Shown piece after piece: positions 14,285-36,940 of a stretch of DNA of 64,000 nucleotides. A program made the position numbers and the translations under genes. Position 1 is the first letter of the stretch; each line of letters starts with the position of its first letter. The stretch is from an uncultured Methanosarcinales archaeon (GTDB taxonomy: Archaea; Halobacteriota; Methanosarcinia; Methanotrichales; Methanotrichaceae): the NCBI GenBank assembly GCA_963843555.1, contig CAWJKV010000014.1:32001-96000 (forward strand), given 5' to 3'. The notes under the pieces are model-generated. The model was not told where the DNA came from, searched no databases, and worked only from the letters and a program-made list of their open reading frames with translations.

Positions 14285-14647
14285 ATGACCCAAAAATCTG
14301 TCTCGGATCTACGAGTCAAGATCCTTGATGCACTTTCAGACCCCACAAGGCTGGAGCTGTTGGAATATCTCTCCCAGGGAGAGCGTTGCGTCTGCGAGAT
14401 CATCCCTGCCTTTCAGAGATCCCAATCCACCATATCCAAACATCTGAACATCCTCCACGAAGCAGATATCCTAGATCGTAAGCTGGAGGGCAAGAGGACA
14501 GTTTACAGAATAAAAGATCCTCAAGTATTTGATCTGATCAGAATGGTGGACAGTATGGCTCTGAGGCAGATATCTCAGCTTAATGAAGCCGGAAAGATTC
14601 TGGAAAAATCCCTCAGCAATACTCAATTCTCGGCGCAACTTCAATAG
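14285..14647 (+). CDS. arsR: ArsR/SmtB family repressor
   Basis: ALSDPTRL, ERCVCEI, SQSTISKHL; TTTATA box about 30 nt upstream. Confidence 0.9.
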   Translation: MTQKSVSDLRVKILDALSDPTRLELLEYLSQGERCVCEIIPAFQRSQSTISKHLNILHEADILDRKLEGKRTVYRIKDPQVFDLIRMVDSMALRQISQLNEAGKILEKSLSNTQFSAQLQ

Positions 14648-14660
14648 GTGTTGATCTCAA

Positions 14661-15743
14661 ATGGATACATACACGATTATGGCGGCTCTGCAAGCAGGCT
14701 TCGCAACATTGCTGGAATATCTATCGGCACACGTTTTGACCTGCCTGATTCCCGCATTCTTCATAGCCGGCGCCATTTCCACACTCCTGCATAAGGAGAC
14801 AGTGCTTAAATATTTCGGAGCTGACGCGCCCAAATGGCTTTGCTACAGCGTGGCTGCCACTTCAGGAACGGTCCTGGCTGTATGCAGCTGCACCATCCTG
14901 CCCATGTTTGCAGGAATAGAAAAGAGAGGCGCAGGAATCGGCCCAGCCACGGCCTTTCTCTTCTCGGGTCCAGCCATCAACATCATGGCCATAATACTCA
15001 CGGCGCGGGTCTTGGGCCTGGATCTGGGAGTAGCCAGAGCGGTAGCGGCGGTCACCATGGCGGTCGTCATCGGCCTCATCATGGCTGCCATATTCCAGAA
15101 ATCTGAAAAAAAATGTGAATCTAAACCCGCTGCAACCGCCCAGATAGATTCCGACTCTGAGTCGAAGAGCCGTCCCGGCTATATCACAGGCTTATTCATG
15201 GCCATCCTGGTGGCCATATTGCTCGTGGCCACCTCCAGCTTCTTCGCATTATTGCCTAAATCGATAATCGTAGGAGCACTGGTATTATCAGCCGTTTTCC
15301 TGATGAAGACCTACTACCTGCCCGAAGAGAGAGATGAGTTCCTATCCGAGACCTGGTGGCTGACCAAGAAGATCTTTCCCCTGCTGGTAGTGGGCACATT
15401 CCTCACCGGCGTTATCGGTTACTTCATGCCCATGGAATGGATTCGCGCCGTCTTTGGCACCAGCAGCTTTTCGGCCTGCTTTTTGGCCTCGGTCATAGGC
15501 GCTCTGCTCTACATGCCCACGCTGCTGGAGGTCCCTATTGTGGGAACTCTCTTCGGCTACAGCACCGGCGATACCGCCGCCGGCCCCGCGCTATCGCTCT
15601 TGCTTGCCGGACCGTCTTTGAGCCTGCCAAGTATGATAGTGATCACAAGGGTAATTGGTCTGAAGAAAGGAGGCGTATACATAGTTCTGGTTGTCATAAT
15701 GTCGACCCTGGCCGGCATGATATATGGAGCAATTGTTTCATAA
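14661..15743 (+). CDS. arsP: ArsP/DUF318 permease
   Basis: AVCSCTILPMF, FLFSGPAIN, YMPTLLEVP, LLAGPSLSLP. Confidence 0.85.
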   Translation: MDTYTIMAALQAGFATLLEYLSAHVLTCLIPAFFIAGAISTLLHKETVLKYFGADAPKWLCYSVAATSGTVLAVCSCTILPMFAGIEKRGAGIGPATAFLFSGPAINIMAIILTARVLGLDLGVARAVAAVTMAVVIGLIMAAIFQKSEKKCESKPAATAQIDSDSESKSRPGYITGLFMAILVAILLVATSSFFALLPKSIIVGALVLSAVFLMKTYYLPEERDEFLSETWWLTKKIFPLLVVGTFLTGVIGYFMPMEWIRAVFGTSSFSACFLASVIGALLYMPTLLEVPIVGTLFGYSTGDTAAGPALSLLLAGPSLSLPSMIVITRVIGLKKGGVYIVLVVIMSTLAGMIYGAIVS

Positions 15744-16104
15744 TTAATAGTAGGGGTCAGAGGAAAATGAAGAACATTTGGAGAGGAAGTGTTGCGGGTT
15801 GCATCCGAAAACGGGCAGCAGGTGAAAATAGCATCTCTCTATTTTGCTGGCATGACCACTCTGCCACTGCAGATCAGCTCCGCCGGCTTGAAGGTGTATC
15901 CAAAGAGGTTGAGCAGCCGTCAAGGTGAGCATCCATCTCTACAACCAGGCTGCAATGGATACAATCACCTGGGAGGATCAGCCTGAGTATAATCCGGAGG
16001 CCTTGAGAACCTTGAATATCCAGAGCCGGGCTGGCAGACCTGGGACGCAACAGCCTTCGTGAAAAAGGCGGCAGTGGAATGCAGCGAGGCTGTCCTTTCT
16101 CCAT

Positions 16105-16278
16105 GGTATTGGTGTCAGAGGACTGATTTACCTGATGATTTATAACCTGGGCATAGTGCTTCCCGTGCTGCTCTTAGGAGTCGCCAAGGCTCTTGGCATG
16201 AGCCCAGTGAAGGTGGATAATTTCCGGAACCGTCACAATGATTTAGGCGAAAGGAATGGGCTCAAGTTTATCCGGTAA
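16105..16278 (+). pseudogene. Fragment of a CcdA-like membrane protein C-terminus
   Basis: Frame reads GLIYLMIYNLGIVLPVLLLGVAKALGMSPVKVDNFR with no start; upstream 15770-16100 looks like further debris. Confidence 0.45.
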
Positions 16279-16322
16279 ATGGATATTGAGAATCGGAAAA
16301 TCAAACTCGTGAGGTGGATTAA

Positions 16323-16559
16323 ATGGTGAAGATCGAAGTATTGGGAACAGGCTGTGCCAAGTGCAAGAGCCTATTGAAGAACGTGGAGAAGGCGGTCTCG
16401 GAGTCTGGCATTCAGGCGGAGATCATCAAAGTGGATAGCATCCAGGAGATCATGGATCGGGGTGTGATGATGACCCCCGCGCTCTTTATCGACGGCGAGT
16501 CCAAAATGGTTGGAAAGACCGGCAGTGTGGAAGAGATAAAGAAGATGCTCAAGAAATGA
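16323..16559 (+). CDS. Small redox-active disulfide protein (thioredoxin-like, ars-associated)
   Basis: IEVLGTGCAKC, GVMMTPAL; GAGGTGG RBS. Confidence 0.9.
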   Translation: MVKIEVLGTGCAKCKSLLKNVEKAVSESGIQAEIIKVDSIQEIMDRGVMMTPALFIDGESKMVGKTGSVEEIKKMLKK

Positions 16560-16571
16560 GGGATTAATATC

Positions 16572-16952
16572 ATGGAAGAGAAAAAGAAATGCCTGTGCAG
16601 TTCCTCGGATGTACGTGTCGTAGCCTGCTCCGGAGCCTCAAATGTGGGACAGATCGCAAACCAGGCGGCAATCGAGCTGGCCAGAGAAAATGTGGCAGGA
16701 TTCTTCTGTCTGGCGGGAGTAGGAGCCCATATTAAAGGAATGGTCAAATCCGGGAAAGAAGCTGATCTGATGGTGGCCATAGACGGATGTCCTGTGCAGT
16801 GTGCTGCCAAGACTTTGCAGCATGCCGAAATCGAGCCTGCGATACAGGTAATTGTAACGGAACTTGGAATTGAGAAGTCTCATGATATCGCAATTGATGA
16901 AAAGGCCTGCTCTAAAGTTGTAGCAAAGGTAAAGGAAGAGCTGGCTGCCTAA
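16572..16952 (+). CDS. DGC-domain putative zinc-binding protein
   Basis: ACSGASNVGQ, FCLAGVG, AIDGCPVQC. Confidence 0.9.
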   Translation: MEEKKKCLCSSSDVRVVACSGASNVGQIANQAAIELARENVAGFFCLAGVGAHIKGMVKSGKEADLMVAIDGCPVQCAAKTLQHAEIEPAIQVIVTELGIEKSHDIAIDEKACSKVVAKVKEELAA

Positions 16953-16969
16953 AATATTGGTGGAAAGAA

Positions 16970-18073
16970 ATGAGTTTATTGAAATCAAAGCTGATGCTGA
17001 TTTGCATAATCTTCGGGATCCTATTGGCGGTCATAGCCCTTACACAGAACGCATATGCAGGAGCGGAATGTGCATCCTTGGGCGGTGGTTGCGACGACGG
17101 CGGCGACTGGAACCCCATGTCCAAGCTGGACGAGATTGGAAAGCCAACCACCAACAGTCAGGAGCAGACTGCGGCCAAGTGGCCGGAGAAGTCGAGGCAG
17201 ATGAGATGGAACATGAATGCTTCCACCCAGGAGGATGAAAAGAACACGGCTTCGGAGACTCCTGAGAAGGCTGAAGCGCCTGCTCAGAAGGCCATACCTG
17301 TAAAGGTTGCAGAGGATCCTGCAAGGATAGTACGCAGCCCTGAGGCAAAAACGATTCTCGCTCCACTGGACACGGTCACGGATGGTGATATTCTGTTGGA
17401 CGTGAGCGAAAACTCCAGCACGCATATTGCTGGGTCAGTGGTCATACCTTACATGGAGTTTGACGTGCAAGCTGGAGTTTTGAAACCCGCGCCTGAAATC
17501 TCCAAGATTCTGGGAGACGCCGGAATCTCTCGTGATGATTCCGTCGTAATCTACGGAGAATGCCTGCCCTGCGGAGGAGGTCCGTCTGTAGCGACTTACA
17601 TCTACTGGATGATGAAGAGTCTGGGTCATGAGACGGTGAAGGTTTTAGACGGGACGGCCGAAGACTGGGAGGCAATGGGACGGGACACCACGAAAGACGC
17701 CCAGATACTACCCAGCAAAATCTACAATCCCGTAGAAACAGCAAATTACACTGCAACCTATGAGTTCGTAAAGAGCGGCCAGGCGCAGATCGTGGACGCC
17801 AGGACTTTGCAGGAGTTTGGGTCCGGAAGCATACCGGGATCGATCAGCATACCCTATACCAGCGTGCTGAATGGGAAAAAGATCAAAGGCGAGGACCAGC
17901 TGAATAAGGTTTTTATGATTCTGGACAAAGACCAGCCGGTAGTTGTCTTCACCAACACGGGTATGAAAGCCTCTGTGGTCTGGTTCGCCCTGGAGATGAT
18001 GGGTTATGATGCCAGGCTCTACAATTACCAGGATTGGACGGTAAATCAGCCTTCTAAAGGCTATTTGGGATAG
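16970..18073 (+). CDS. Secreted tandem rhodanese-fold protein with CLPC loop
   Basis: Signal peptide; LGDAGISRDDSVVIYGECLPCGGGPS; VKVLDG; IVDART..EF..GSIPGS; C-domain loop VVFTNTGMKAS has no Cys. Confidence 0.85.
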   Translation: MSLLKSKLMLICIIFGILLAVIALTQNAYAGAECASLGGGCDDGGDWNPMSKLDEIGKPTTNSQEQTAAKWPEKSRQMRWNMNASTQEDEKNTASETPEKAEAPAQKAIPVKVAEDPARIVRSPEAKTILAPLDTVTDGDILLDVSENSSTHIAGSVVIPYMEFDVQAGVLKPAPEISKILGDAGISRDDSVVIYGECLPCGGGPSVATYIYWMMKSLGHETVKVLDGTAEDWEAMGRDTTKDAQILPSKIYNPVETANYTATYEFVKSGQAQIVDARTLQEFGSGSIPGSISIPYTSVLNGKKIKGEDQLNKVFMILDKDQPVVVFTNTGMKASVVWFALEMMGYDARLYNYQDWTVNQPSKGYLG

Positions 18074-18085
18074 TGTGGTGAAAGA

Positions 18086-19642
18086 ATGATATTAATCAAA
18101 TCAAATTCGTGTAGAGCGGAACCAGCGGAACGCAAGGGCTTCTCTGCAATAGCTAGTACGGTGCTCATTTACGGGGTCATTTCCATCCTTATGCATGGCC
18201 TGGTCTTGAGTGCGCCTGTCTTGGCAGGCACGGAAACGGGCGAGTTCTGCCCCACCTGCCCTGACTGGAGCGACATGGATGGCTGGCTGGCGAAGAAGGC
18301 GGCATATGATCAAGAACAACAGAACGTTAAGCTCAATGTCCAGCAGATCCTACCTGAGACTCAGAATGCAGATCCGGCTCCCGTTCAGAATACCAATGCA
18401 TCCGTCCAGAGAGACTATTCTCCAGCTCGGACATCCAGGTTTGCCGAGGCGCTCGTATCTCCGACAGAGGTCTCGCCTGAAGACGTTGTGCTGGACATCA
18501 GCCCCAGCGCTACAAAATACATAGACGGTGCTGTGAATGTCAACTACGAGGGCTTTATGGGCGAAGGCGGTCAGCTCAAGCCCATCTCAGAAATTGCCTC
18601 GTTGCTTGGCGATGCAGGCATATCCCGCAACGACTCTCTGGTGATTGCAGGCGAGTGTCTTCCCTGTGGTGGCGGTCCATCCCCGGCAGTCTTCACCTAT
18701 TGGCTGCTGAAGTACTTGGGGCATGAAAAAGTAAGAGTTCTGGACGGCAGCATCGAGGACTGGACGGCGGCCGGGCTAAATACCAGCAATAAGTCTGCCA
18801 CAAGGCCGAAGACGAACTACACTCTCCTGCTTATGCCGGAGCTTCTTGCTACCTTTGACTATGTCGTTAACGGCGGGGCCCAAATCGTGGACGCCAGGCC
18901 TGCCGTAGACTTCGGCATGGGTTCTATTCCCGGAGCCGTAAACATTCCCTATGAGAATGTGATCGAGAATGAGAGAATAAAGCCCGAAGAGGATCTGCAG
19001 AGGGCTTTCATAGAGCTGGAGAAGGACCGGCCTGTCGTGGTTTATACCAATGTAGGCGTTGAGGCCTCACTGGTATGGTTTGCTTTGACCCTATCTGGCT
19101 ACGATGCCAGGCTATACTCCTGGCGTGACTGGACTGAAAATCTGCCCAAGTTCGGATTCGAGCTGGAGAATGTTGAGGCCCAGCCCAACCCAGTTCAGTC
19201 CGGCTCGACTACGACTATAACGGCATCTTTCCAGGAGTCGCAGACTAATGCTACAGAGAATTCATCGCAAAACGGCGAGACCAAGCTCACGATTAAGGGA
19301 TGCTCTACCTGCGGATTTGAGGGTTTCGCTCTCGGCACCTCAGGCGCCTCCGGGGCCTCCGGGAATAATTCTGGGATAGTCCAACTTGGTTCATCCGGCA
19401 AGACATCGCAGGCAGGCGGGGTGCAGGCTGTCGATAGCGCCTTGCGCTGCACCGCCATAATTAACAGCCCTGACGGCACCGAGGTAGCAAGGACGAGCCT
19501 GCTGCGCACCTCCGCATACCAATATATGGGGATCTGGAATGCCAATGTGGCACCCGGGATTTACAAAGTGAGTATATCGGCCACAGCCTCTGGCAGCGCA
19601 AAGACCTTTGCAGATGTCCTGGAGATAGAGGTAACCCTTTAG
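18086..19642 (+). CDS. Secreted tandem rhodanese-fold protein with CLPC loop and C-terminal Ig-like domain
   Basis: N-terminal TM/signal; CPTC; GECLPCGGGPS; loop VVYTNVGVEAS; C-terminal CSTC and YMGIWNA..APGIYKV. Confidence 0.85.
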   Translation: MILIKSNSCRAEPAERKGFSAIASTVLIYGVISILMHGLVLSAPVLAGTETGEFCPTCPDWSDMDGWLAKKAAYDQEQQNVKLNVQQILPETQNADPAPVQNTNASVQRDYSPARTSRFAEALVSPTEVSPEDVVLDISPSATKYIDGAVNVNYEGFMGEGGQLKPISEIASLLGDAGISRNDSLVIAGECLPCGGGPSPAVFTYWLLKYLGHEKVRVLDGSIEDWTAAGLNTSNKSATRPKTNYTLLLMPELLATFDYVVNGGAQIVDARPAVDFGMGSIPGAVNIPYENVIENERIKPEEDLQRAFIELEKDRPVVVYTNVGVEASLVWFALTLSGYDARLYSWRDWTENLPKFGFELENVEAQPNPVQSGSTTTITASFQESQTNATENSSQNGETKLTIKGCSTCGFEGFALGTSGASGASGNNSGIVQLGSSGKTSQAGGVQAVDSALRCTAIINSPDGTEVARTSLLRTSAYQYMGIWNANVAPGIYKVSISATASGSAKTFADVLEIEVTL

Positions 19643-19943: not shown

Positions 19944-19963
19944 ATATCGGCAAAGATTGATAT
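19944..19963. promoter_or_regulatory. ATATC-N10-GATAT operator overlapping a TATA box
   Basis: ttatATATC ggcaaagatt GATAT, 14 nt before ATG 19978. Confidence 0.65.
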
Positions 19964-19977: not shown

Positions 19978-20271
19978 ATGGGACTGAAAGATAAGATCTT
20001 CGGAGATAAGGCCAGCAGCGGTTGCTGCTGCGGCACGCGCATCGTCGGCCTGAGGCAGATCAACGTCGGGGGACGCAACACGGGAATTATGGGAATGGAC
20101 GAGACCTTCCAGGAATACTTTAAAAAGGGAAAGAAGCCCGAGGATTCTACCGGAGATGAGATGGTCGAGGATTTAAAGAAGCTCAATTTCATCGCCGAGG
20201 ATGCTGAGAAGATGTATAAAGAGGCTTTTTTGAGAGAGTATCAAAGGTTCTACGAATCCAGGAAGAAATGA
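19978..20271 (+). CDS. Small hypothetical protein with N-terminal CCC
   Basis: SSGCCCGT; first gene of an arsR-permease operon. Confidence 0.75.
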   Translation: MGLKDKIFGDKASSGCCCGTRIVGLRQINVGGRNTGIMGMDETFQEYFKKGKKPEDSTGDEMVEDLKKLNFIAEDAEKMYKEAFLREYQRFYESRKK

Positions 20272-20286: not shown

Positions 20287-20716
20287 ATGGTGACATCAAT
20301 AGTGACCGGCAAAGAAGGTTTGCGAGGATTCAAAGATCGATGAGGATGCAATATGCAGCCTGGCGAGGCTCATCGGAGACACGGACAAAGCCCGAGCCAG
20401 GACCAGGAAGCTCGCCTCATTGATGAAGAATATCGAGATGGAAGGCCCGGAAGGAGAGGTCGATGTCTTCAAGGCGGCTGCCGACCCCTGCCGGCTCAGG
20501 ATTCTTAAGCTTCTCAAAGAAGGAGAACTCTGTGTCTGCGAGATCATGACCGCCCTTAAAAAACCTCAATCCTCCACCTCCCATCATTTGTCCATTTTGA
20601 GAGAGGCGGGACTTGTCAAAGAGCGCAGAGACGGCAAATGGTCCTATTATCGACTTGCGGATGGAGCGGTCAATGAGATGGTCAAACAGGCCGGAGCACT
20701 AAAGAAAAAACAATAA
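20287..20716 (+). CDS. arsR: ArsR repressor with N-terminal extension (apparent +1 frameshift near 20305)
   Basis: AAADPCRL, ELCVCEIM. The frame from 20306 reads PAKKVCEDS...RLIGDTDKA, homologous to RLIGDADKA of ArsR 33882, and joins ATG 20287 only if one base is removed. Confidence 0.8.
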
Positions 20717-20737
20717 AAATTTTTGAAGGATATAAAA

Positions 20738-21637
20738 ATGTTTTGGGAAGACTTAGCGGTAGCGGCGAATTTCTTCGTGGAAATCGCTGTAGAATTGATC
20801 GTTTTATTCATAGGCATAACCTTTCTCGTGGGGCTAATACAGGAGTACGTACCGGATGAGACCATAAAGAAGGTCCTTGGTGGGCAGCACAAAATTCTGG
20901 GCAGCATCCTTGGGGCTGGATTCGGCGCTCTTACGCCATTTTGTTCCTGCTCGACCATACCTCTCCTCCTGGGAATGCTCAACGCCGGCGTGCCCTTTGC
21001 ATCTGCAATGTCATTCTTGTTCGCTTCTCCGCTGCTGAACCCGGTGATAATATCATTGTTCGTCATTTTGATGGGATGGAAGATAACTGCGCTCTACTTT
21101 GCCGTCACCTTTGTGGGCGCAATTGCCATCGGTCTCTTGCTCGATAGCCTCGGCTTTGCCAGTCAGGTGAAATCCGTGGCCGCAGTACGAAGCTGCTGTG
21201 ACTGCCAGCAGGCAGCGGATGCGAAATCGAGGATACAACGCTCTGCTGCAAATGCATTCAGTTTATTCCGCCAACTCGTGCCCTATCTCCTGTTAGGCGC
21301 AGGCATTGGTGCATTCATTCATGGATTCGTTCCTACGGAGATCATCACCCGCTTCGCAGGGCCGGACAATCCCTTGGCCGTTCCTGTGGCCGCTCTCATA
21401 GGCATTCCCATCTACATCCGGGCCGAGACCATGATCCCCATCGGCCTGGTCCTCACGGAGAAAGGCATGAGCGTGGGGGCCGTCCTGGCACTGGTTATCG
21501 GCGGAGCGGGGGCGAGCATCCCTGAGCTGACGCTTCTATCGGCCATATTCGAGAAGAAGCTGCTGGCAGCCTTCGTGCTTACTATCTTCAGCATAGCGGT
21601 GGCTGCGGGATATCTGGCCAATTTGCTGGTAGCTTAG
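20738..21637 (+). CDS. Second ArsP/DUF318-family permease
   Basis: LTPFCSCSTIP, FLFASPLLNP, PIYIRAET, GAGASIPE; internal SCCDC loop. Confidence 0.88.
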   Translation: MFWEDLAVAANFFVEIAVELIVLFIGITFLVGLIQEYVPDETIKKVLGGQHKILGSILGAGFGALTPFCSCSTIPLLLGMLNAGVPFASAMSFLFASPLLNPVIISLFVILMGWKITALYFAVTFVGAIAIGLLLDSLGFASQVKSVAAVRSCCDCQQAADAKSRIQRSAANAFSLFRQLVPYLLLGAGIGAFIHGFVPTEIITRFAGPDNPLAVPVAALIGIPIYIRAETMIPIGLVLTEKGMSVGAVLALVIGGAGASIPELTLLSAIFEKKLLAAFVLTIFSIAVAAGYLANLLVA

Positions 21638-21745
21638 GTAAGAAATGCGACGATATTTCGCCAATGATGCCTGCTGGTGTCAGAAGGCGAAATAACTTCC
21701 TTTTATGAGTGAATATTTTCCGATGCTTCGAGCCATAACATTCAT

Positions 21746-21765
21746 ATATGCACATTTGCACATGT
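21746..21765. promoter_or_regulatory. ATATG-N10-CATRT operator upstream of acr3
   Basis: ttcatATATG cacatttgca CATGT. Confidence 0.6.
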
Positions 21766-21948: not shown

Positions 21949-23046
21949 GTGAACTCAAATAAAAAACTCTCATTCCTGGATACATATCTGACCCTTTGGA
22001 TATTTTTAGCCATGGCTCTTGGCATTGCATTAGGGTATTTCTTTCCAGCCGTTCCGAAGGCGATCACAGGGCTTTCCATTGGCACTACATCAATACCTAT
22101 TGCCATTGGATTGATCCTTATGATGTACCCTCCATTAGCGAAAGTCAGATATGAAGAACTCGGAAGAGTCTTCAAGGATACAAAGGTTCTGGGTCTTTCG
22201 CTTGTGCAAAACTGGATTGTCGGTCCCGTGCTCATGTTTGTCTTGGCGGTGATCTTCCTCCAAGACTATCCCCATTACATGTATGGTCTGATACTGGTTG
22301 GGCTGGCCAGGTGCATCGCCATGGTGATAGTCTGGAACGATCTGGCGGGCGGAGACTGTGAGTACTGTGCTTCCATCGTGGGTTTGAACTCTGTCTTCCA
22401 GGTTTTCTTCTACTCCATATATGCCTATATTTTCCTAACCGTACTGCCTTCAGCGTTGGGCATCGCTGAAGGAGTCGCAGTCAATGTGACCATGGGCGAG
22501 ATCGCAAAGAGCGTTTTCATCTATCTGGGCATACCATTCATTGCTGGTATTATCACCAGATACGTGTTGATCAGATCCAGAGGAAAGAGCTGGTACGAGA
22601 ACAAATTCATCCCTCGAATATCACCTATTACCCTCATTGCTCTGCTTTTCACCATCGTGGTGATGTTCTCGCTAAAAGGGGAGTATATTGTAGGGGTCCC
22701 ACTGGACGTAGTGAGAATCGCCATACCACTGACCATATACTTCGCATTGATGTTTTTCATAAGCTTTTACATGGCATACAAATCGGGAATCGATTACCAA
22801 AGAAGTACCAGTCTTTCATTCACCGCTGCCTCCAACAATTTTGAGCTGGCCATTGCTGTGGCAATAGGTGTCTTTGGCATAAGTTCCGGCGAAGCATTCG
22901 CAACAGTTATCGGACCTCTCGTGGAGGTGCCAGTAATGATCTTACTGGTCAGAGTAGCCCTATATTTGAAGGAGCGGTGGTATAAAAACAGAGAAGATGC
23001 GAGCTGCAATCTTGCTGCAAAATGCAAATCAATGGAGGTTAATTAA
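21949..23046 (+). CDS. acr3: Acr3 arsenite efflux pump
   Basis: [43 protein letters not shown]. Confidence 0.95.
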
Positions 23047-23072
23047 TCCTAAGTCGACTCCGGCCACAACAT

Positions 23073-23100
23073 TCATATATGCGCATTCTCACATATATGA
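23073..23100. promoter_or_regulatory. Perfect TCATATATG-N10-CATATATGA operator
   Basis: 9-bp perfect inverted repeat inside an ~87-bp segment (23063-23150) that duplicates 21732-21818. Confidence 0.7.
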
Positions 23101-23202
23101 TGAAGAGACCAAAAGCTCAACTGCAATCGCCGAATGCGTGATAAAATTCGTGCCCTTGCGAAAACACTGCCTGTAGCTCCAATCAAATTGGAAAGAGGAG
23201 CA

Positions 23203-24126: not shown

Positions 24127-24144
24127 TAATTAGGAGGGATCTGA

Positions 24145-28949: not shown

Positions 28950-29312
28950 CTATTCAGATCTAAATACGGAAGCTGTATTCTGAGCTCCACAAGTTTTCTT
29001 TTTAGCCAGATCTTCCATAGACGACAGTTCGGTGCACAAGGACTCACAAAGACTTTGGAATAGGCTCGCTTCTACTTTATTTCCGGGATCACTTAGGGTA
29101 TAGTATATCCATAAACCCTCCCGCCTGGACTTCAAAAGGCCTGCACGACGCAGGATAGCAAGATGACGGGAAGCCTTTGTCTGCGAGATGCCCAGAGCGG
29201 CCTCGATTTGACAGACGCAAAACTCCCTCTTGTAAAGCAAGACTATGAGCCTCAGTCGCGTTTCATCGGAGAGTGCCTTAAATAACTCAACGTATTGTTC
29301 CGTTTGGTTCAT
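28950..29312 (-). CDS. arsR: ArsR repressor
   Basis: FKALSDETRL, EFCVCQI, SQTKASRHL. Confidence 0.9.
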   Translation of the reverse strand: MNQTEQYVELFKALSDETRLRLIVLLYKREFCVCQIEAALGISQTKASRHLAILRRAGLLKSRREGLWIYYTLSDPGNKVEASLFQSLCESLCTELSSMEDLAKKKTCGAQNTASVFRSE

Positions 29313-29318
29313 CTATTT

Positions 29319-29338
29319 ACATGCAAATATGCGCATAT
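29319..29338. promoter_or_regulatory. ATATG-N10-CATRT operator at the arsR(29312) promoter
   Basis: Minus strand ttcatATATG cgcatatttg CATGT, 6 nt before the ATG. Confidence 0.65.
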
Positions 29339-29392
29339 ATGAAGCTTTTGGCGTTTTGAAGACGCATTCTCTGTTGGATTCCAGACTCATCT

Positions 29393-29841
29393 TTATTTCC
29401 TAAACGTATGTGATATCCAATCCTTTATCTCATCCCTCACTTGCCGGAAGACCTCAAGCTGCTCCTCCTCAGAGCCTGTGGCCAGGGCAGGATCCTCGAA
29501 GCTTCAGTGAATGACTTCTCTTGCTTTAGGAAATTTGTAGGAAGCTCAAACTCTGTGCTGCAGATCGGGCAGGCCTGTTTGGCCCGGTTGCAGACAGTGA
29601 CTGCCAGTTCAAATACTGTATCCTGAAATTCCATTGAAGACTTGGATTGCTGACCAGAGATATCGATGCCGATTTCCAACATGACCTGCACGGCGCGAGG
29701 ATCGACCGATGCGGCCTCGACTCCGGCGCTGTAAGCCTGGTATCGATCGCCGTACATGGCCCGCAAGAGGCCTTCGGCCATCTGGGAGCGGGCGGAGTTG
29801 TTAGTGCAGAGAACGAGAACCTTCTTCTTATCCTGGTGCAT
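29393..29841 (-). pseudogene. arsC: Thioredoxin-type arsenate reductase ArsC, disrupted
   Basis: LCTNNSARSQMAEG, TVC, ACP. Frameshift near 29530, then H-TGA-SFEDP (29504-29506) and FRQVRDEI in the corrected frame. Confidence 0.85.
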
Positions 29842-29974
29842 CGCAAGGGATGTCATCCATGTCTCAATGCTCATCAAAATAGATCAGCATTTTGCCCGTT
29901 CTGTTGCAGGAGGATTTTTGCAGTATTCTGGAGGCAGGTTACATTGAAATCCTTCCTTGCATAGACTATTGCAG

Positions 29975-30271
29975 ATGACCTGTGACGAGCAGGAGCTTTA
30001 TGATATCTTGCAAGAGATCGAGGCGCTCTGCACAATGCACGAGCGAATTACGCAGTCCTCCAAGTGCCGGGAGTTCAACCACCGCGCTGCCCTGCTGCTG
30101 CAAAGACTGGAAGACTCTGAATGCGATCGTCTGGCGGATAGGACCATGGACCTTCTGGCATCCTGCAATCCCAAAGACCTCTCTCAATGTGACAGCATCC
30201 AGCGTGCCAGGGATGTTCTGCAGAGGCTGAGGGAGATGGCCAGAGAGAACTTGAAAGAAGAAAAAGATTGA
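29975..30271 (+). CDS. Small helical Cys-containing hypothetical protein
   Basis: Six Cys; divergent from arsC. Confidence 0.6.
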   Translation: MTCDEQELYDILQEIEALCTMHERITQSSKCREFNHRAALLLQRLEDSECDRLADRTMDLLASCNPKDLSQCDSIQRARDVLQRLREMARENLKEEKD

Positions 30272-30339: not shown

Positions 30340-31051
30340 TCAGTTTACCTTTGAGACGAATGGATAATGATCGATTGAAGATCCATCATCTATCTTCCTG
30401 GGCAGATCGCAGAATCCATCCTTATCGGTGTCATTGCAGCCTTCCTTTGGCTCGTCGTAATCGCCATAATGGTTTCCTTTCATCTGTTTTCCAGTAAATA
30501 ATTCCAAAAGCCCTTGTATTCCATCTGAGTTCTGGCTGCTGCTATTCCACGAATTGCCACCCTGATCTCTGGCTGCGATTTCATTCCCCCGCAGATCATT
30601 AGATACAAAGATGTTATTGACAGATCCCATCATGACGTATATGCCGTACTTATTCTTGTAGAAGACATTATCAGAGATCGTGTTGTTATTGGATTCAATC
30701 CGTATTCCCGCATTTCTGGAGCAAGCGCATCCGGTAGAGCCGGTCAGATTAAACCCCTTTACCGTAGATCCATTGGCTATCAGGGCGATTGCATTTCCAA
30801 ATCCTTCTGCATCTACAACTGGCAAGCCATCGCCTGTGTCAAGGCCTATTAAGCTTACAGCTTTGACAACTTTGAGCCTTTCCCGATATGTTCCGCTATG
30901 AAACTTCAATGACATCTCCATTACTTGAGTTATCGATGGCCTTCTGGATCTGTGGGTAGTCTTCGTCTAATGGGCCTACAGTAATTTTTACCGCTTGGGC
31001 CAGGTCAATGATCAATATTATTGTTAATATAATTAATAGACTTTTTCGCAT
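30340..31051 (-). CDS. Second secreted NosD-like beta-helix protein (apparent +1 frameshift at ~30902)
   Basis: ATG 31051 after GAGGAG gives MRKSLLIILTIILIIDLAQAVKITVGPLDEDYPQIQKAID...VIEV; an extra T follows, then HSGTYRE...GCACS. Confidence 0.8.
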
Positions 31052-31195: not shown

Positions 31196-32596
31196 TTACC
31201 ACATCTTGTACCCCAGGTACCTCACCGCATAGACGAGGCCGATCAAGATCACTGCCACTCCGAAGATCTTGGTCACATACTTTCCGGCATAGATGTACTT
31301 CTCGCCGATCTGCCCGCCCACAGCCCTGGAGAAGGTGGAAATGGGAATCACAGGCACGCCATGGCCCAATCCGAAGACGAAGAGCATCAGGCCTCCCACC
31401 AGGGGTGTCACGTCCTGGGAGATGAGCCAGATGAGCACCGGGAAGACCAGGGACACGGCGCAGGGTGCCCAGCCCAGGGCGAAGAAGACGCCCAGGGTGA
31501 AAGCTCCAATGAAGGCCGAATACTCGAAAAGGCCCATGGAGAAGTGAACCAGCCTCTCCATTATGCCCTTCTTTTGCACCGGCGAGTCATCTTCATCAGC
31601 ATCGGCTTTGCGGAAGGAGAAGTGCGACCTGACCGGCTCAATGATCTCGCCGATGGGCTTGATGATATTTATTCCCAGGATGATCATCAAGAGGCCGGCT
31701 GCCAGGTCAAAGAAGCGGGCCTGGCGGATGAAGACGCCGATGTCTGAGAGAAAGAGCCCCAGCACGAAGAAAACCAAGGCCATGCCCAGAGTGAAGGCCA
31801 CCCCGATCATGAAACCCTCTTTGGAGGCCGTTGCTGACTTCTTGAGGTACTCCTCTTTCCGGCGAGCAGTCATGACATAGGAGAACATAGCCAGGAGCAG
31901 AGCCACGGAGCAGGGCGAGAGGGAAGTTACAATTCCCAGGACGAACATGGTCAGGTAGTTCACGCCCTGGCTGGATGCGATTCCTTCGAATCCGGAAGCC
32001 TCACCGCTCTCCATGCTTTTCAGGTCACTGTAAAGAGAATCAGCGCTCTGGATGCCATCGATCTCGCCCTTGCCGAGCTGGTAGACGTGGAAGAGGTCCG
32101 CAACGTTTCCTTCTTTATCTATCAGGATCAGCGTAGGGTTGGCAAAGCCGCCCTCCAGGGTGGAGTAATCGATGTATTTGCTGGTAAGAGGATAGGGCTC
32201 AAAGTCCTCAATCCAAGGCCAGGTTACATTGGTGTTCCACCAGAAACTGGCCAGAGTCCGGCCGTCCTCTGAGTATGGGTTCTTCCGGACGTTGAGGGTT
32301 ATGATATTAATGCCGGGATCCTTCTGCTTTAAGATGGAAAGCTCCCGGGTCTGGGCGTTCAGTGCGTTCTCGCACTCCCTGCAGAGGGGATTCTCAATGT
32401 TGGTGATGTGCAAAAGGACGACCTCACCCCGGTAGTCGCTCAAGGAGACATTCTTTCCATCAAGGTCCACTGCCTGAAAATCAGGAGCTTTAGCCTCCTG
32501 TGCCAGGCCTGTTGACAAGCTTAAGAAGAGGGAACATAAGATGACAAAAAGGGTGATTGGTCCCAAAATCAGGGATCTTTTAATTTTGAAAGACAT
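31196..32596 (-). CDS. Exported redoxin (AhpC/TSA-like, CREC) fused to a CcdA domain
   Basis: Signal peptide; APDFQAVDLDGKNVSLSDYRG; CREC; PTLILIDKEG; SLSPCS and GWAPCA. Confidence 0.88.
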   Translation of the reverse strand: MSFKIKRSLILGPITLFVILCSLFLSLSTGLAQEAKAPDFQAVDLDGKNVSLSDYRGEVVLLHITNIENPLCRECENALNAQTRELSILKQKDPGINIITLNVRKNPYSEDGRTLASFWWNTNVTWPWIEDFEPYPLTSKYIDYSTLEGGFANPTLILIDKEGNVADLFHVYQLGKGEIDGIQSADSLYSDLKSMESGEASGFEGIASSQGVNYLTMFVLGIVTSLSPCSVALLLAMFSYVMTARRKEEYLKKSATASKEGFMIGVAFTLGMALVFFVLGLFLSDIGVFIRQARFFDLAAGLLMIILGINIIKPIGEIIEPVRSHFSFRKADADEDDSPVQKKGIMERLVHFSMGLFEYSAFIGAFTLGVFFALGWAPCAVSLVFPVLIWLISQDVTPLVGGLMLFVFGLGHGVPVIPISTFSRAVGGQIGEKYIYAGKYVTKIFGVAVILIGLVYAVRYLGYKMW

Positions 32597-32626
32597 GGCT
32601 GTTTATCCTTTTATTCAGGCCAGACT

Positions 32627-33169
32627 TCATTTGTTCCAGTTAGCGGAGTTCTCGTTATAGTAGACTAATGCGTCCTCGATATATTTCTTGGTCCAGCTCT
32701 CGCCTGTAACCTCATCAGTGCTGTGCCAGACCGGCACGACCTTTCCCTCCGCATTCGGAGCCAGAGTTACAATAACTGTCAATGGCACATACATGCCGCC
32801 GCCGTTGGGATCGTATGCCCGCAGGGCTTCTTCTGATCTGGCATCGCTTCCGTCAGCAGATAAATTGAAGTAGGTGAATTCATCTCCCATCTCGTCAACT
32901 ATCTTTGTCAGGGCCTCTGTCTGAGGTGCACAGTAGCTGCAGCCTTTGTGAGCGTAGACAACCACAGGCTTGCTTTCTAGAGCGTCCAAAACCCAAGCAG
33001 GATGGTTGACCTCACCGCCTTTACCACTGGATTGATCCGGATATGTTGTCCACCAGTCATTATTTCCCGATCCTACTGAATATTCAGCACCCATGACATT
33101 AACGCTGAACGCCAGAATGAAGACCGCAATCAAAGATGCTACGCAAACTGTTTTCTTGATTATGCCCAT
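32627..33169 (-). CDS. Exported thioredoxin-fold protein
   Basis: Signal peptide; KPVVVYAHKGCSYCAPQ; YVP cis-Pro-like motif. Confidence 0.8.
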   Translation of the reverse strand: MGIIKKTVCVASLIAVFILAFSVNVMGAEYSVGSGNNDWWTTYPDQSSGKGGEVNHPAWVLDALESKPVVVYAHKGCSYCAPQTEALTKIVDEMGDEFTYFNLSADGSDARSEEALRAYDPNGGGMYVPLTVIVTLAPNAEGKVVPVWHSTDEVTGESWTKKYIEDALVYYNENSANWNK

Positions 33170-33344: not shown

Positions 33345-33364
33345 ATATCGACATTATTGGATAT
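33345..33364. promoter_or_regulatory. ATATC-N10-GATAT operator at the thioredoxin-ccdA promoter
   Basis: ATATC gacattattg GATAT overlapping minus-strand CTTATA. Confidence 0.65.
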
Positions 33365-33572: not shown

Positions 33573-33592
33573 ATATCGAAATAACTGGATAT
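33573..33592. promoter_or_regulatory. ATATC-N10-GATAT operator at the peptide-arsR-rhodanese promoter
   Basis: cttatATATC gaaataactg GATAT. Confidence 0.65.
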
Positions 33593-33703: not shown

Positions 33704-33856
33704 ATGAGCACGGTGAAATGCGAAATATGCAATAAAGAAGCGGAATCCCTATTCATCGTAAGTCACAAAAAGAGGGGTAGAATAAGAATATGCTGCGACT
33801 GTCTGAAGCAAGAGGGGCCAAAGCTTCTAAATCAAAAAAGCTGCAGTTGCTGTTGA
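33704..33856 (+). CDS. 50-aa Cys-rich peptide (absent from the ORF track)
   Basis: MSTVKCEICNKEAESLFIVSHKKRGRIRICCDCLKQEGPKLLNQKSCSCC; GAGGGTGA RBS upstream; precedes arsR. Confidence 0.75.
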   Translation: MSTVKCEICNKEAESLFIVSHKKRGRIRICCDCLKQEGPKLLNQKSCSCC

Positions 33857-33881
33857 AAGTTGCTGCTAAAGAGAGGAGTCC

Positions 33882-34274
33882 ATGACATGCGTTACGGAAG
33901 AAGCTGTTAACAGGATGACACGGCTGATCGGCGATGCCGATAAAGCCGAATGCAAGGTCGACAAGATCCGTTCCATAGTGAACAGCATAGACGAGCTGGA
34001 GATCGAGGAGGAGGCTGAGATATTTCAGGCTATGGCCGATCCCTGCCGACTCAAGATCCTCATGCTCCTGAGAGAAGGAGAGTTATGCGTCTGCGAGATC
34101 ATGATCGGTCTCGACAGACCCCAATCCAGCACATCTCATCACCTTTCCATCCTCAAGGATGCAGGGCTCATCAAAGAGCGCAAGGATGGGAGATGGTCCA
34201 GATACCGGCTGTCCGAGGGCGCTGTTATTGAGATGCTCAATATGGTAAAGCTGATGAAAGAAGCTAAAATCTGA
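33882..34274 (+). CDS. arsR: ArsR repressor with N-terminal extension
   Basis: AMADPCRL, ELCVCEIM, PQSSTSHHL; GAGGAG RBS. Confidence 0.9.
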   Translation: MTCVTEEAVNRMTRLIGDADKAECKVDKIRSIVNSIDELEIEEEAEIFQAMADPCRLKILMLLREGELCVCEIMIGLDRPQSSTSHHLSILKDAGLIKERKDGRWSRYRLSEGAVIEMLNMVKLMKEAKI

Positions 34275-34290
34275 GAGAGGGCAAAAACAA

Positions 34291-35388
34291 ATGACCAAAT
34301 TCGATACTATTCACAATGATAACGCCAGCTCAACTCTTGACCGAAAGAGATCAGGCTCAAGAGGGTTCTATGTTCTGGGAATTCTGATAATTTCCTTGAT
34401 GGCTTTTGCGCCCGTAGTTGACGCGGGCTGCAGTTGCGGCGGAGGCACCTGGGATCCTAGCGGTTTCCTCAACTCTGAACCTGGAACCGGCCAGCCCGTC
34501 CAGCCAGGCAGCGCCCAAAACAACGCTGCTGGATATTCCGGTAACAGCACGCAGAATTCCGGTATAAACACAGAGAAGCCGTTGGATAGGGCGGCCTCTT
34601 TTCCTAATGGTGGGATCCTTAAGTCCATGAAGAGCGTTTCCAGCTCAGATGTGGTAGTGGACGTATCCAACGGCGACAGCTACGCGAAGTCTCATATCGA
34701 GAATGCCATTCACATTCAAACCAGAGACTTCTTAGATGGCGCTGGCAACCTAAAAACAGATGAGGAACTAGCCTCGATCTTGGGCGATAAAGGCATCTCC
34801 AGAGATGATTCAGTAGTCCTTTACGGGAATAAAGAGAGCTCTGGGGAAGCCGAATTTGCCTTCCTGGTGCTACAACACTTGGGACAAAAGGATGTCAGAC
34901 TCCTGGATGGAAGCCTGGCAGACTGGAAAGCTGCAGGCTTGCCTGAGGCGGCTTTGGAGAATATAAAGCCTAGCGTTGTGTACAACCCCGAAGTCAACCC
35001 CAAGGTTATAGCCGAATTCGAATACGTGAAGTCCAAACAGGCCCAGATCGTGGATGCCCGGCCCTTTGTGGAGTTTGGCAAAGGCCGCATACCAGGCTCT
35101 GTCGCTCTGGATCCAGCCAATATAATTAAAGGAGATCGTATCAAGAATGGAGACGAACTGGGTATGGTATTCGGCAGGCTGAGCAAAGACCAGCCGATCG
35201 TAGTTTATTCCAGCGATTACAGCCGCTCATCTCTGGTCTGGTATGCTCTGCAGCTCATGGGATATGAGGCCAGCATCTACACCTGGGAGGATTGGAAGGC
35301 GAACGAGGCAACGGGGGAGCAGGCCGCTACGACTCCGGCTGGAGGAGGCACTGCCAGCACGAAATACACAAAGCTGGGCAATACGTGA
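34291..35388 (+). CDS. Secreted tandem rhodanese-fold protein without loop Cys
   Basis: TM/signal then AGCSCGGGTWDP; SHIENA; LGDKGISRDDSVVLYGNKESSG; GRIPGS; loop VVYSSDYSRS. Confidence 0.85.
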   Translation: MTKFDTIHNDNASSTLDRKRSGSRGFYVLGILIISLMAFAPVVDAGCSCGGGTWDPSGFLNSEPGTGQPVQPGSAQNNAAGYSGNSTQNSGINTEKPLDRAASFPNGGILKSMKSVSSSDVVVDVSNGDSYAKSHIENAIHIQTRDFLDGAGNLKTDEELASILGDKGISRDDSVVLYGNKESSGEAEFAFLVLQHLGQKDVRLLDGSLADWKAAGLPEAALENIKPSVVYNPEVNPKVIAEFEYVKSKQAQIVDARPFVEFGKGRIPGSVALDPANIIKGDRIKNGDELGMVFGRLSKDQPIVVYSSDYSRSSLVWYALQLMGYEASIYTWEDWKANEATGEQAATTPAGGGTASTKYTKLGNT

Positions 35389-35426
35389 TCGTCTAAGTAT
35401 TATGCCATTGGGAGGAGAGTTCTAAC

Positions 35427-35498
35427 TACAAACTGGGAGTGAACTATGAGAACACGGCGGCTCTCTCCTTCACCGCGGCCAGCAACAACTTCGAGCTG
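35427..35498 (+). pseudogene. acr3: 72-bp acr3 fragment
   Basis: [24 protein letters not shown] vs [24 protein letters not shown] in the intact acr3. Confidence 0.8.
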
Positions 35499-35574
35499 AA
35501 GCTGAGGGATAAGTACTATCCCGGTGCGCCCTGATAAGATATTTGCGAAACTAATAGTTAGCATGGTGAGATAG

Positions 35575-36372
35575 ATGACTGGATCGCCCGCTGAGGTAAA
35601 GCTCGTGAGCAACGCAATGGCCAACGCCACGAGGAGAAAGATAATGGCCATGCTGGTGGAGAAGGACAGAACAAGAGCAGAGATCGAGCAAGAGATAGGA
35701 GGCTCCATGCTGGACTACCACATGCAAATGCTGCAGCAAGCCGGCTTGATCGACATCAAGGAAGACGCTATGGTTCTAACCGATTTTGGAAAGAACTTCA
35801 TGGAGACCAAGGCCGAGAAGCCGGCCGAGGCCAAGAAAGATCTTGCAGGCACAAAGCCCCTGGAAGTCGTCGAGCTCAGACAGCTCTTGCCCTGCATTGC
35901 CGACAGCACCAAGTTCAGGATTATTGCCCGTTTTGAGCCACCTTTGGGCGGTGCCCTAAAACTCCTGGAGCCCCTATTCCCTAGGGCCAGGTACTCGGAG
36001 AGGATTGGAGCGCTCATCATCCAGAAGGGCAATATTCTCATCACCGTCTATTCCACCGGCAATGTTACCATGACCATGATCAAGAGCGAGGCAGAGGCTC
36101 GAGAGACTATGGAGGATCTGAAGAGGACCATCAACGAGGCCATAGCTAAGGGGGTGACTCCAGTTCCAAGAGAGAAGATCAAGGTAGATCACGCTGAGAT
36201 CTATGAGTACCTTCCCAAGACCAATTGCCAGATCTGTGGAGAGCAGAGCTGCTACGCTTTCGCCATCAAGCTGGTGGGAAGGGAGACAGCTCTGGATAAA
36301 TGCACTCCGCTGCTGGAGGCCAAATACGCCACCAATCTGGAGCATGTCAGGGCATTGCTCGAATACCTCTGA
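35575..36372 (+). CDS. ArsR-like wHTH + central domain + C-terminal Fe-S domain protein (copy 1)
   Basis: AMANATRRKI...LDYHMQML; LPCIAD; LPKTNCQICGEQSC...CTPL (CdhE/RnfB-type Fe-S motif). Confidence 0.85.
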   Translation: MTGSPAEVKLVSNAMANATRRKIMAMLVEKDRTRAEIEQEIGGSMLDYHMQMLQQAGLIDIKEDAMVLTDFGKNFMETKAEKPAEAKKDLAGTKPLEVVELRQLLPCIADSTKFRIIARFEPPLGGALKLLEPLFPRARYSERIGALIIQKGNILITVYSTGNVTMTMIKSEAEARETMEDLKRTINEAIAKGVTPVPREKIKVDHAEIYEYLPKTNCQICGEQSCYAFAIKLVGRETALDKCTPLLEAKYATNLEHVRALLEYL

Positions 36373-36384
36373 AGGAGGAACACC

Positions 36385-36771
36385 TTGAAGACGCTGACCA
36401 TCATCCTCACGGACGGTCCCTACATCTCAGAATATGCCGAGATGGCCTACAAGATCGCATCAGAGTCGCTGAAAGATTTCAGGTTAATATATATTTCTTC
36501 ACCTGGATGCGGTGCATATTCCCAAGCTCGGGCAAAAGCCTTCTCTTTTTGGAAATGCTGGCCTGTTATTCCAGGAGCAGGCCGAGAGGGGAGCTGTGGT
36601 CAGGGCCTGTGCCAGGTGTGCCACAGCCAGAGGCTACCTGGCCGGGGAAGATGGCGTCTGCGCGGATTATCATCCGGGGAAAAGATCACCAGCCTCTACG
36701 ATCTGGCAGAGATGATGGAGAAGAGCGACAGGGCAATTGCCATTCGAAGACAGGTGAAGCATGGACAATAA
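36385..36771 (+). pseudogene. DsrE-like gene, multiply frameshifted copy
   Basis: Colinear with 58823-59191; indels near 36475-36495 and 36680. Confidence 0.85.
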
Positions 36772-36940
36772 AAGAGATCTTCCTTCTGACCAAGACGCCT
36801 CAAAATGACCGCACGAAGCTATGCCTTGACCTCATGGAGCTTTCGGAAAATGGCGTTCTGTATATCGCCGGAGACGGGGTCTACAATTTGCTTGAAGAGA
36901 CAACTCTCGAAGTCCTACCAAGGGGGAGGATTCTGGACCT
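36761..36940 (+). pseudogene. DsrH-like gene, frameshifted and truncated copy
   Basis: KEIFLLTK...GVLYIAGDGVYNLL...RIL then diverges; the intervening dsrF-like gene is absent. Confidence 0.8.

Follow-up and report, generated by a model that had tools for sequence, protein, structure and literature searches.

Introduction

Operons for arsenic resistance (ars) that also carry thiol-redox genes are known. CcdA, a thioredoxin (Trx) and an MTH895/ArsE-type protein were described in ars operons in 2010, when transmembrane electron flow was already floated; the function of CcdA and Trx was left open because no external client was known (PMC2963123). We report here on a related locus from an uncultured archaeon of the order Methanotrichales (assembly GCA_963843555.1; 2.68 Mb, 82% complete). 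The window, that is, the whole 64,000-nucleotide stretch analyzed (positions 32,001 to 96,000 of contig CAWJKV010000014.1; G000:C14:32001-96000), holds at positions 14285-36940 an island in which ars genes are interleaved with genes for thiol proteins predicted to be exported, including four rhodanese-fold proteins (Rhd1 to Rhd4) without the catalytic cysteine. With a probability of about 0.5, we read these exported proteins as paralogues, inducible by arsenite, of an envelope thiol system with housekeeping duties; they would bind As(III) and keep dithiols at the surface functional.

Like the operons described in 2010, the island combines CcdA and Trx as well as redox-active disulfide protein 2 with ars genes (arsA, acr3, arsP and arsC); unlike them, it is archaeal, its CcdA is fused to an exported redoxin, and it also encodes rhodanese-fold proteins and a separate Trx, all predicted to be exported. 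Candidates for an external client are present in the island and not in those operons, and the locus offers specific candidate clients, operators and cysteines for the CcdA/Trx question left from 2010 (PMC2963123). A second relative is the arsR5-arsP-arsE-DGC operon of Pseudodesulfovibrio mercurii ND132, which is arsenic-induced according to the accessible text of the preprint (bioRxiv 10.1101/2022.10.17.512643). Positions 14285-16952 of the window carry the same four genes in the same order; unlike the operon in that text, the island adds two exported pseudo-rhodaneses, and many relatives also have a Trx-CcdA fusion. The Tso selenoprotein operon, as presented in the accessible part of PMC13188914, likewise brings together a rhodanese, DsbD and an ArsR-type regulator; unlike Tso, with its TsoB rhodanese/DsbD fusion and TsoR, the island lacks the fusion, has open frames without selenocysteine, and scores 19-23 against the TsoB cut-off of 805.

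In their two-domain fold the island rhodaneses resemble the thiosulfate and mercaptopyruvate sulfurtransferases (TST/MST; PDB 1uar, 3aax); unlike these, they are predicted to be secreted, have Thr or Ser in place of the catalytic Cys, and in three of the four carry an inserted CxxC in the normally inactive N-domain loop. ArsEFG, reportedly the work of Chen, Zhang and Rosen in 2019, is said to be an organoarsenical route with an ArsE thioredoxin, and to our knowledge neither a redoxin fusion nor rhodaneses are part of it. The island shares with ArsEFG the ArsE thioredoxin and a CcdA-fold membrane protein; unlike ArsEFG, it yielded no ArsF match, and the ArsG model lies far below its cut-off. 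Membership fails because there is no ArsF match. One-line roles for ArsEFG are given in the accessible part of PMC9144182.

Within the order itself, sheathed Methanotrichales are enriched in DsbD, signal-peptide Trx and signal-peptide sulfurtransferase (13/13 vs 0/35), according to Table S5 of PMC11576556; the accessible text of that paper describes the factors of sheath assembly as still unidentified. The island families are of the same three protein types and have the same order-wide and order-specific distribution. Unlike our account, the accessible parts of PMC11576556 tie these proteins to sheath disulfides and mention neither an arsenic link nor loss of the catalytic Cys. Our literature search, which left subscription papers mostly outside its coverage, found nothing on how these genes are arranged in Methanothrix or throughout the order, on the addition of rhodaneses, or on exported rhodaneses that have CxxC and lack the catalytic Cys. 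The first-pass annotation, made from the sequence alone, had put the island forward as its best candidate for a novel system; categorical novelty does not hold, given the operons of 2010 (PMC2963123) and the housekeeping occurrence of the exported families in all Methanotrichales. The known parts and an undescribed pseudo-enzyme family make up a conserved, probably ArsR-controlled accessory system.

Rhodanese-fold proteins without the catalytic cysteine

Rhd1 (16970-18073, + strand) is a predicted exported tandem rhodanese with no catalytic Cys and with a CLPC insertion in the N-domain loop. Rhd2 (18086-19642, +) is built in the same way and has in addition an N-terminal CPTC and a C-terminal immunoglobulin-like domain with CSTC (a weak match, E 0.02). 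Rhd3 (28023-28925, +) is a short membrane-anchored CLPC rhodanese, again without the catalytic Cys, and Rhd4 (34291-35388, +), predicted to be exported and tandem, has no loop Cys and only an N-terminal CSC. Thr or Ser occupies the catalytic position in all four. An AlphaFold model of Rhd3 made from 80 homologues (predicted local distance difference test, pLDDT, 90) matched tandem TST/MST structures in Foldseek with a TM-score of about 0.8 and E 1e-16 (0.80 to 1uar), and the catalytic Cys of the mycobacterial sulfurtransferase 3aax aligned to Thr. Relative to 3aax, the five residues ECLPC are inserted in the N-domain loop that corresponds to the active site, where model confidence is lower (block pLDDT 73). 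The earlier description of the four proteins as CLPC rhodaneses stands for three and fails for the copy at 34291.

The residues were surveyed in 125 distinct copies from hand-chosen loci, 116 from Methanotrichales and nine from ANME-1 (anaerobic methanotrophic archaea, group 1) as an outgroup, the latter identified by its cluster names. The catalytic Cys was found in 0/116 Methanotrichales copies vs 9/9 ANME-1 copies, and the loop CxxC in 89/116 and 4/9, respectively. An unselected profile search showed the same division, giving 117 well-aligned domains in its best 150 matches, with CxxC only (60), neither feature (32), the catalytic Cys only (23) or both (two). Rhd4 and its close relatives have neither, and retain only CxC or CC after the signal peptide. 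These residues show that the annotation 'thiosulfate sulfurtransferase', given to the family throughout the order, does not fit it in the ordinary sense. Acr2/Cdc25 arsenate reductases are single domains with an HCX5R loop; in the alignment of the four island rhodaneses no such motif was present, and the domains are tandem. The exported ANME-1 rhodaneses (L077-L085) keep the catalytic Cys, four of them with an N-domain CxxC and four with a Cys at the N-domain active-site position, and possibly represent an intermediate state. An exported tandem rhodanese with the catalytic Cys also lies between acr3 and an ArsM-like gene in a Synergistaceae ars locus (L104:3272-4174). The position of rhd3 after arsA was not seen in relatives L097, L098 and L106.

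Linkage to ars genes

Order-wide counts refer to 105 Methanotrichales genomes, which are related, so that no count is a statistical test. For linkage, all 86 acr3 matches (76 genomes) were compared with the best 150 of 204 redoxin-CcdA matches and with 57 Rhd4-type rows taken from the best 150 of 165 (the top 49, a split gene whose pieces were merged, and seven lower-identity rows chosen because they lie beside acr3); many contigs are short, and the counts are lower bounds. A rhodanese gene lay directly upstream of at least 52/86 acr3 matches, redoxin-CcdA within 6 kb of at least 45/86, and one or the other at no fewer than 63/86 (60 of the 76 genomes). Of the 50 closest Rhd4 rows, 45 precede acr3, the window copy being one of the five exceptions. 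Among the best 150 of the 204 redoxin-CcdA matches, the closer paralogue was near acr3 in 36/57 cases and the distant paralogue in 9/93. By hand count, the second CcdA type lay within about 2 kb of arsP1 in at least 36/111 arsP1 matches. The association of ars genes with exported thiol genes, expected beforehand across Methanotrichales, was found to be conserved.

Three recurring modules explain the island: module A, arsR1-arsP1-(CBM96-TrxCcdA)-arsE-DGC-rhd1-rhd2; module B, in which a leftward trx and redoxin-ccdA pair faces a rightward unit, 50-amino-acid (aa) open reading frame (ORF)-arsR4-rhd4-acr3-HTH/FeS-dsrEFH; and module C, orf19978-arsR2-arsP2-ahpD-orf23491-ccdA-arsD-arsA. The genes for Trx, redoxin-CcdA, the second beta-helix protein, ArsC and ArsR3 are on the minus strand. 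The island was initially taken to be co-operonic; operators and gene spacing point instead to six or seven units.

ArsR-type operators

ArsR proteins responsive to As(III) carry a CxC motif in alpha-3, and all four island ArsR have CVC there and putative palindromic operators at their own promoters. Three palindrome families are, from their position and symmetry, the putative ArsR operators. The ArsR1-type operator (ATCGTC-N5-GCGAT; 14233-14248, +), directly 5' of a TATA-like box, is matched exactly at two places in the genome, each of them before arsR1, and by eye a similar site is present in 10/11 arsR1 upstream regions. The ArsR3-type operator has three copies in the whole genome (0.00 expected), all in the island: before acr3 (21741-21755, +), before the ahpD-ccdA-arsDA unit (23072-23086, +) and before arsR3 (29329-29343, -).

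The ArsR2/4-type operator (ATATC-N10-GATAT) precedes orf19978 (19944-19963, +) and the 50-aa ORF, where it covers the TATA-like box of the arsR4 unit (33573-33592, +) and recurs in 17/17 loci. A further site covers the TATA-like box of the divergent Trx-CcdA unit (33345-33364, -), 228 bp from the main operator; it was found in 11/17 related loci at 221-228 bp. This Trx-side site was missed by the first operator weight matrix and was found with a palindrome pattern chosen after looking; the type was absent from eight non-ars Trx paralogues, and the ninth control, which did match, belongs to an arsP locus. Because the plain pattern has 19 sites in the genome, one of them inside acr3, the claim rests on conservation and not on the match alone. 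With putative ArsR-type operators before units that include the exported Trx-CcdA pair, ArsR control of the exported genes, as first proposed, is upheld at the level of sequence.

CcdA and thioredoxin proteins

Two island proteins align with the features of CcdA/DsbD-beta, namely about six transmembrane (TM) helices with Cys in TM1 and TM4. One (31196-32596, -) consists of a signal peptide, a redoxin (CREC) and a CcdA TM domain with both canonical Cys; the other (24145-24861, +) is a CcdA/DsbD_TM-fold protein with both canonical Cys and two extra ones (Atlas 0.99 to DsbD_TM clusters, and alignment). In redoxin-CcdA homologues the second motif and the redoxin CxxC are invariant (28/28), and the CcdA cysteines and CxxC motifs that the first-pass annotation had relied on were found to be conserved. 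Transmembrane electron flow through these proteins would be consistent with such conservation. Beside the fusion gene lies that of a predicted exported thioredoxin-like protein with CSYC (32627-33169, -), found in no genome outside Methanotrichales in a sample of 301 genomes of the phylum.

The 24145 protein is 61-77% identical to homologues in nine bacterial loci, with ars genes nearby in 9/9. Upstream of it is encoded a membrane-anchored CcdA partner (23491-24126, +) with a cytoplasmic CGPGCNC, one TM helix, one conserved external Cys, a Cys-rich tail and no CxxC; a homologue of this gene precedes the CcdA homologue in 7/9 of the bacterial loci. The identification of 23491 as ArsF was rejected, as neither it nor five homologues gave an ArsF match at E<=1, nor did any island protein match ArsF in the NCBIfam scan, and its relationship to the CSYC Trx found no support in comparison. 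ArsG was the best NCBIfam match of both CcdA-type proteins, at scores of 35.5 and 50.1 vs a cut-off of 200.

Housekeeping relatives of the exported families

The rhodanese family occurs in 105/105 Methanotrichales genomes (1-12 matches each), and redoxin-CcdA and a second Trx-CcdA fusion each in 102/105. Outside the order, only six ANME-1 genomes in the sample of 301 had a rhodanese match. In nine loci a beta-helix gene, rhodanese(s) and an S8 protease gene follow one another in an operon with no ars gene, most often accompanied by Trx-CcdA and a divergent CBM96 gene; one of these loci lies in the source genome (G000:C5:69788-77689, L003), where Trx-CcdA and CBM96 are divergent from a beta-helix gene, two rhodaneses and an S8 protease. 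In ten well-assembled genomes, with both pieces of a single split gene excluded from the count, 17/61 rhodanese copies were ars-linked (13 within 8 kb of acr3 or arsP1, and four beside arsC, arsM or arsP2); four further copies had arsE-DGC only, and at least one ars-linked copy was present in 9/10 genomes.

On a 60-row tree the ars-linked Rhd1/2/3 mix with housekeeping copies in one clade (support 97/97), and the ars label changes five times, at least three of these being forced. The tree fits repeated recruitment of rhodaneses to ars loci; it has a midpoint root and no clade test, so the direction is unproven. The supplements of PMC10470525, as accessible, place ccdA Mthe_0997 at 2.6-5.3 x and the sulfurtransferase Mthe_0453 at 2.8-3.8 x the median RPKM (reads per kilobase per million) in four growth conditions; these genes are equated with the island families by protein type, gene order and distribution only. 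The word arsenic is absent from the accessible main text of PMC10470525.

Interpretation and alternatives

As(III) binds dithiols. In our favored reading, a housekeeping extracytoplasmic thiol system, made up of two kinds of CcdA fusion, exported Trx and exported tandem rhodaneses with exposed CxxC or CxC, would have had paralogues placed repeatedly under ArsR operators beside acr3, arsP, arsC and arsM. As(III) or a trivalent methylarsenical (MAs(III)) would release ArsR repression; export by Acr3 or ArsP would then deliver arsenic into the narrow compartment that separates the membrane from the sheath, and there it would attack vicinal thiols. Once induced, the rhodanese-fold proteins would bind As(III) or exchange dithiols without catalysis, serving as a sink or chaperone through CLPC and the N-terminal Cys (in Rhd4, through the N-terminal CxC only), and electrons passed from cytoplasmic ArsE/Trx to CcdA and on to the fused redoxin or CSYC Trx would keep the dithiols of these proteins and others of the envelope reduced. 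Such a chain might work like the bacterial CcdA/Trx accessory ars genes joined to a DsbD-DsbC-type repair arm, and not like an arsenate reductase. The extra thiol-maintenance copies in ars operons would thus probably guard the cell envelope from exported arsenite, which corresponds to the last of the options offered in the first-pass annotation, repair or protection of envelope thiols, and is the option we favor at even odds.

Several observations weigh against this reading. Neither partner was found, among the matches listed, at 23/86 acr3 matches (some of them near contig ends), and 44/61 rhodanese copies in the ten well-assembled genomes are not ars-linked. The Trx-side operator was missed in 6/17 loci. 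Rhd4, the copy best linked to acr3, has no CxxC to serve a relay, and elsewhere the CxxC motifs could be structural disulfides because the secreted rhodanese proteins are Cys-rich. Several island members in the window are split or decayed. Finally, the proteins of Table S5 (PMC11576556, accessible parts) are equated with the island families by protein type, gene order and distribution only.

Other explanations for the island differ in what they make of its neighbors and its cysteines. In a general thiol-reactive stress module, answering to soft metals, Sb, sulfide or polysulfide and oxidants with arsenic as only one inducer, a wider range of ions would be sensed by ArsR2/4, which have an additional Cys at the N-terminus, and by the Cys-rich 50-aa protein. 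In keeping with it, ArsR4 has a Cys outside the CVC motif, dsrEFH and the FeS protein follow acr3 in many relatives, ArsP1 and ArsP2 also match Cu/Zn efflux models (below cut-off), and adenosine dialdehyde, too, elicited a response of the arsR5 operon in ND132 according to the accessible preprint text (bioRxiv 10.1101/2022.10.17.512643). The neighbors, however, are specifically acr3, arsC, arsM and arsDA, and no Cu/Zn/Hg pump was recognized among the 30 island-region proteins scanned; we regard this explanation as unlikely. It is improbable, too, that the locus encodes an ArsEFG-like route in which ArsE reduces an organoarsenical, the 24145 protein (with its extra CC and CxxxC) is the efflux permease, and the exported proteins are side passengers. 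The ArsE model match, the ranking of ArsG for both CcdA-type proteins, the two ArsP, and a 23491-24145 pair common to bacterial ars loci would all suit such a route, but the ArsG scores are far below the cut-off, ArsF is without a match at E<=1, the invariant redoxin CxxC fits electron transfer, and the rhodaneses are left unexplained.

The first-pass annotation had further considered that, outside the membrane, CcdA-fed CLPC rhodaneses catalytically reduce As(V) or thioarsenates, or remove sulfur from arsenic species. CLPC does lie, as a five-residue insertion, in the active-site-equivalent N-domain loop; the locus also encodes a supply of reductant, arsenic induces a rhodanese gene in two bacteria, and the exported rhodanese of bacterial ars locus L104 has an intact catalytic Cys. 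This external reductase or dethiolase is nonetheless about as improbable, because the defining residue is gone (0/116), the copy best linked to acr3 has no CLPC, and the same loop is found in housekeeping copies without ars context; moreover, no HCX5R motif of the Acr2/Cdc25 kind was present in the four rhodaneses, and a cytoplasmic ArsC is already encoded. Least probable, to our minds, is that the exported genes hitch-hike, that is, have no arsenic role and are linked by shared ancestry in a duplication-prone region. The families are indeed multi-copy and housekeeping, the island is duplicated on contig C2, several members are decayed or lineage-specific, and the genomes are not independent; against this, linkage holds in many genera and in different arrangements, several origins of the ars label are seen in the tree, and a dedicated Trx-promoter operator is kept only in ars-linked copies.

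An extension of the envelope-thiol reading, which we put forward tentatively and consider rather less likely than the reading itself, is that the exported rhodaneses constitute a new class of thiol chaperone for sheath assembly, with ArsR-controlled copies capturing arsenite at the Acr3/ArsP exit. The sulfurtransferase cysteine would have been swapped for CxxC in the other domain; the housekeeping copies, fed by CcdA and CSYC Trx, would be the missing disulfide-handling factors of the Methanothrix sheath, and the ArsR-controlled copies would carry arsenite through or away from it. The archaeal sheath (SH) protein consists of two long antiparallel beta-sheets, is encoded by multi-copy tandem genes, and is distributed over Methanotrichales and ANME-1. 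At window positions 11881-12609 (-) lies the gene of a Cys-rich protein that is predicted to be secreted and all-beta and that has near-identical paralogues in tandem on C5. Its model is all-beta (pLDDT 56), no solved relative was found in the PDB by sequence or fold, and the family occurs in 9/9 sampled Methanotrichales, in 8/66 ANME-1 genomes and in one further genome; in its copy number and distribution it fits a candidate SH protein. Of the 66 ANME-1 genomes, nine have a rhodanese, these being the same eight that have the candidate and one more, and all belong to a single genus, so the coincidence amounts to one event. Weighing against the envelope-thiol reading itself, the profile of the candidate matched no gene beside the housekeeping operons. 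If true, it would add to arsenic resistance an extracytoplasmic arm not described before, and the locus would point to candidate sheath-assembly factors. Methanothrix is a major methane producer according to the accessible text of PMC10470525; arsenic-rich soils and sediments are a plausible habitat.

Other genes of the island

Pfam and NCBIfam scans of 30 ORFs of the island region bore out the first inventory, with four ArsR, two ArsP_1, Acr3, ArsD, ArsA, ArsC, thioredoxin, DGC, CMD/AhpD, rhodaneses and CcdA types all present. The four ArsR (ArsR1, CVC, 14285-14647, +; ArsR2, 20420-20716, +, with homology reaching upstream to about 20336; ArsR3, 28950-29312, -; ArsR4, CVC and an N-terminal Cys, 33882-34274, +) exceed the NF033788 cut-off. 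ArsP1 (14661-15743, +) and ArsP2 (20723-21637, +) match PF03773, Acr3, the arsenite exporter (21949-23046, +), scores 465 vs a TIGR00832 cut-off of 283, and ArsA (26141-27922, +), which follows ArsD (25662-26168, +), exceeds that of TIGR04291. The cytoplasmic MTH895/ArsE thioredoxin (CAKC; 16323-16559, +) scores 103 vs a TIGR00412 cut-off of 62 and is followed by a DGC-domain protein (PF08859; 16572-16952, +). A CMD/AhpD-like protein with CQPC and two CC is encoded at 23134-23469 (+), and the thioredoxin-type ArsC, of the low-molecular-weight type, at 29396-29877 (-), split over frames near 29535. The hydropathy scan gave N-terminal hydrophobic segments for Rhd1-4, Trx, the redoxin-CcdA fusion and the first beta-helix gene. 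The stated absence of cytochrome-type clients also held: PF01578 (CcmF/CcsA) had no match in the 82%-complete genome, the control being positive in 9/14 genomes, and a single CxxCH occurs in 19/2668 ORFs, none of which looks secreted by eye.

Both beta-helix genes, of NosD type, encode predicted exported proteins, the first (24881-25624, +) with CGC and its 3' end split over frames, and the second (30340-31051, -) with CAC and split near 30905. They had been counted as members of the system; CxC beta-helix genes were found in 0/31 ars loci of relatives. Three features had been overlooked: the CcdA partner (23491), a remnant at 15744-16322 (+), and a previously unlisted 50-aa Cys-rich ORF at 33704-33856 (+). 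The remnant, which is decayed, combines a CBM96 gene with the 3' end of a gene for a Trx-CcdA fusion; the intact genes of L064 are 73% and 82% identical to it in DNA. The 50-aa protein (CxxC...CxxC...CSCC), the first gene after the ArsR4 operator, has 17 homologues including its own copy and no Pfam match, and is possibly a Zn-finger/As(III) sensor or sink. Two further small Cys-containing proteins recur in ars loci of the order: a cytoplasmic one with N-terminal CCC, conserved before arsR2 (19978-20271, +; no Pfam or NCBIfam match), and one beside arsC or redoxin-CcdA (29957-30271, +; no family match). After rhd4 follow a helix-turn-helix (HTH), TATA-binding-protein-like and iron-sulfur (FeS; PF04060) protein (35575-36372, +), usually found after acr3 in relatives, and a decayed dsrE with partial dsrH, dsrF being missing (36385-36962, +).

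Genome context

The closest named relatives of an island gene are on Methanothrix/Methanosaeta contigs (89-93% identity), and GC content is 0.45-0.53 across the region, with no compositional island in its profile. The genes arsC, dsrE and both beta-helix genes are split over frames. Because 15/74 orthologous loci elsewhere in the same assembly are also split, sequencing indels are the likely cause, and apparent pseudogenes in this genome need read-level checks. The arsC and beta-helix splits may be assembly errors. At the dsrE/dsrH end and across the 15744-16322 gap, parts of genes have been deleted, which has the appearance of true decay. A plasmid search with the CcdA protein returned only five distant records (29%), and a sigma-70 promoter and terminator scan was at chance (23 vs 20.5 and 13 vs 18.7), the sigma-70 model being uninformative for an archaeon.

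A second, rearranged copy of much of the island is located on C2 (G000:C2:188800-203200, L001; 82-99% protein identity). It lacks arsDA and the beta-helix genes, has acr3 directly after rhd4, and adjoins two very Cys-rich secreted proteins. At a third locus (G000:C6:11749-18568, L002), Trx-redoxinCcdA paralogues lie ~3 kb from an ArsM-like methyltransferase gene, directly after which comes a Cys-less rhodanese; the same layout is seen in L059. Outside the island, window positions 58139-60531 (-) hold a second ArsR - HTH/FeS - dsrEFH cluster, which is intact; this unit follows acr3 in many relatives.

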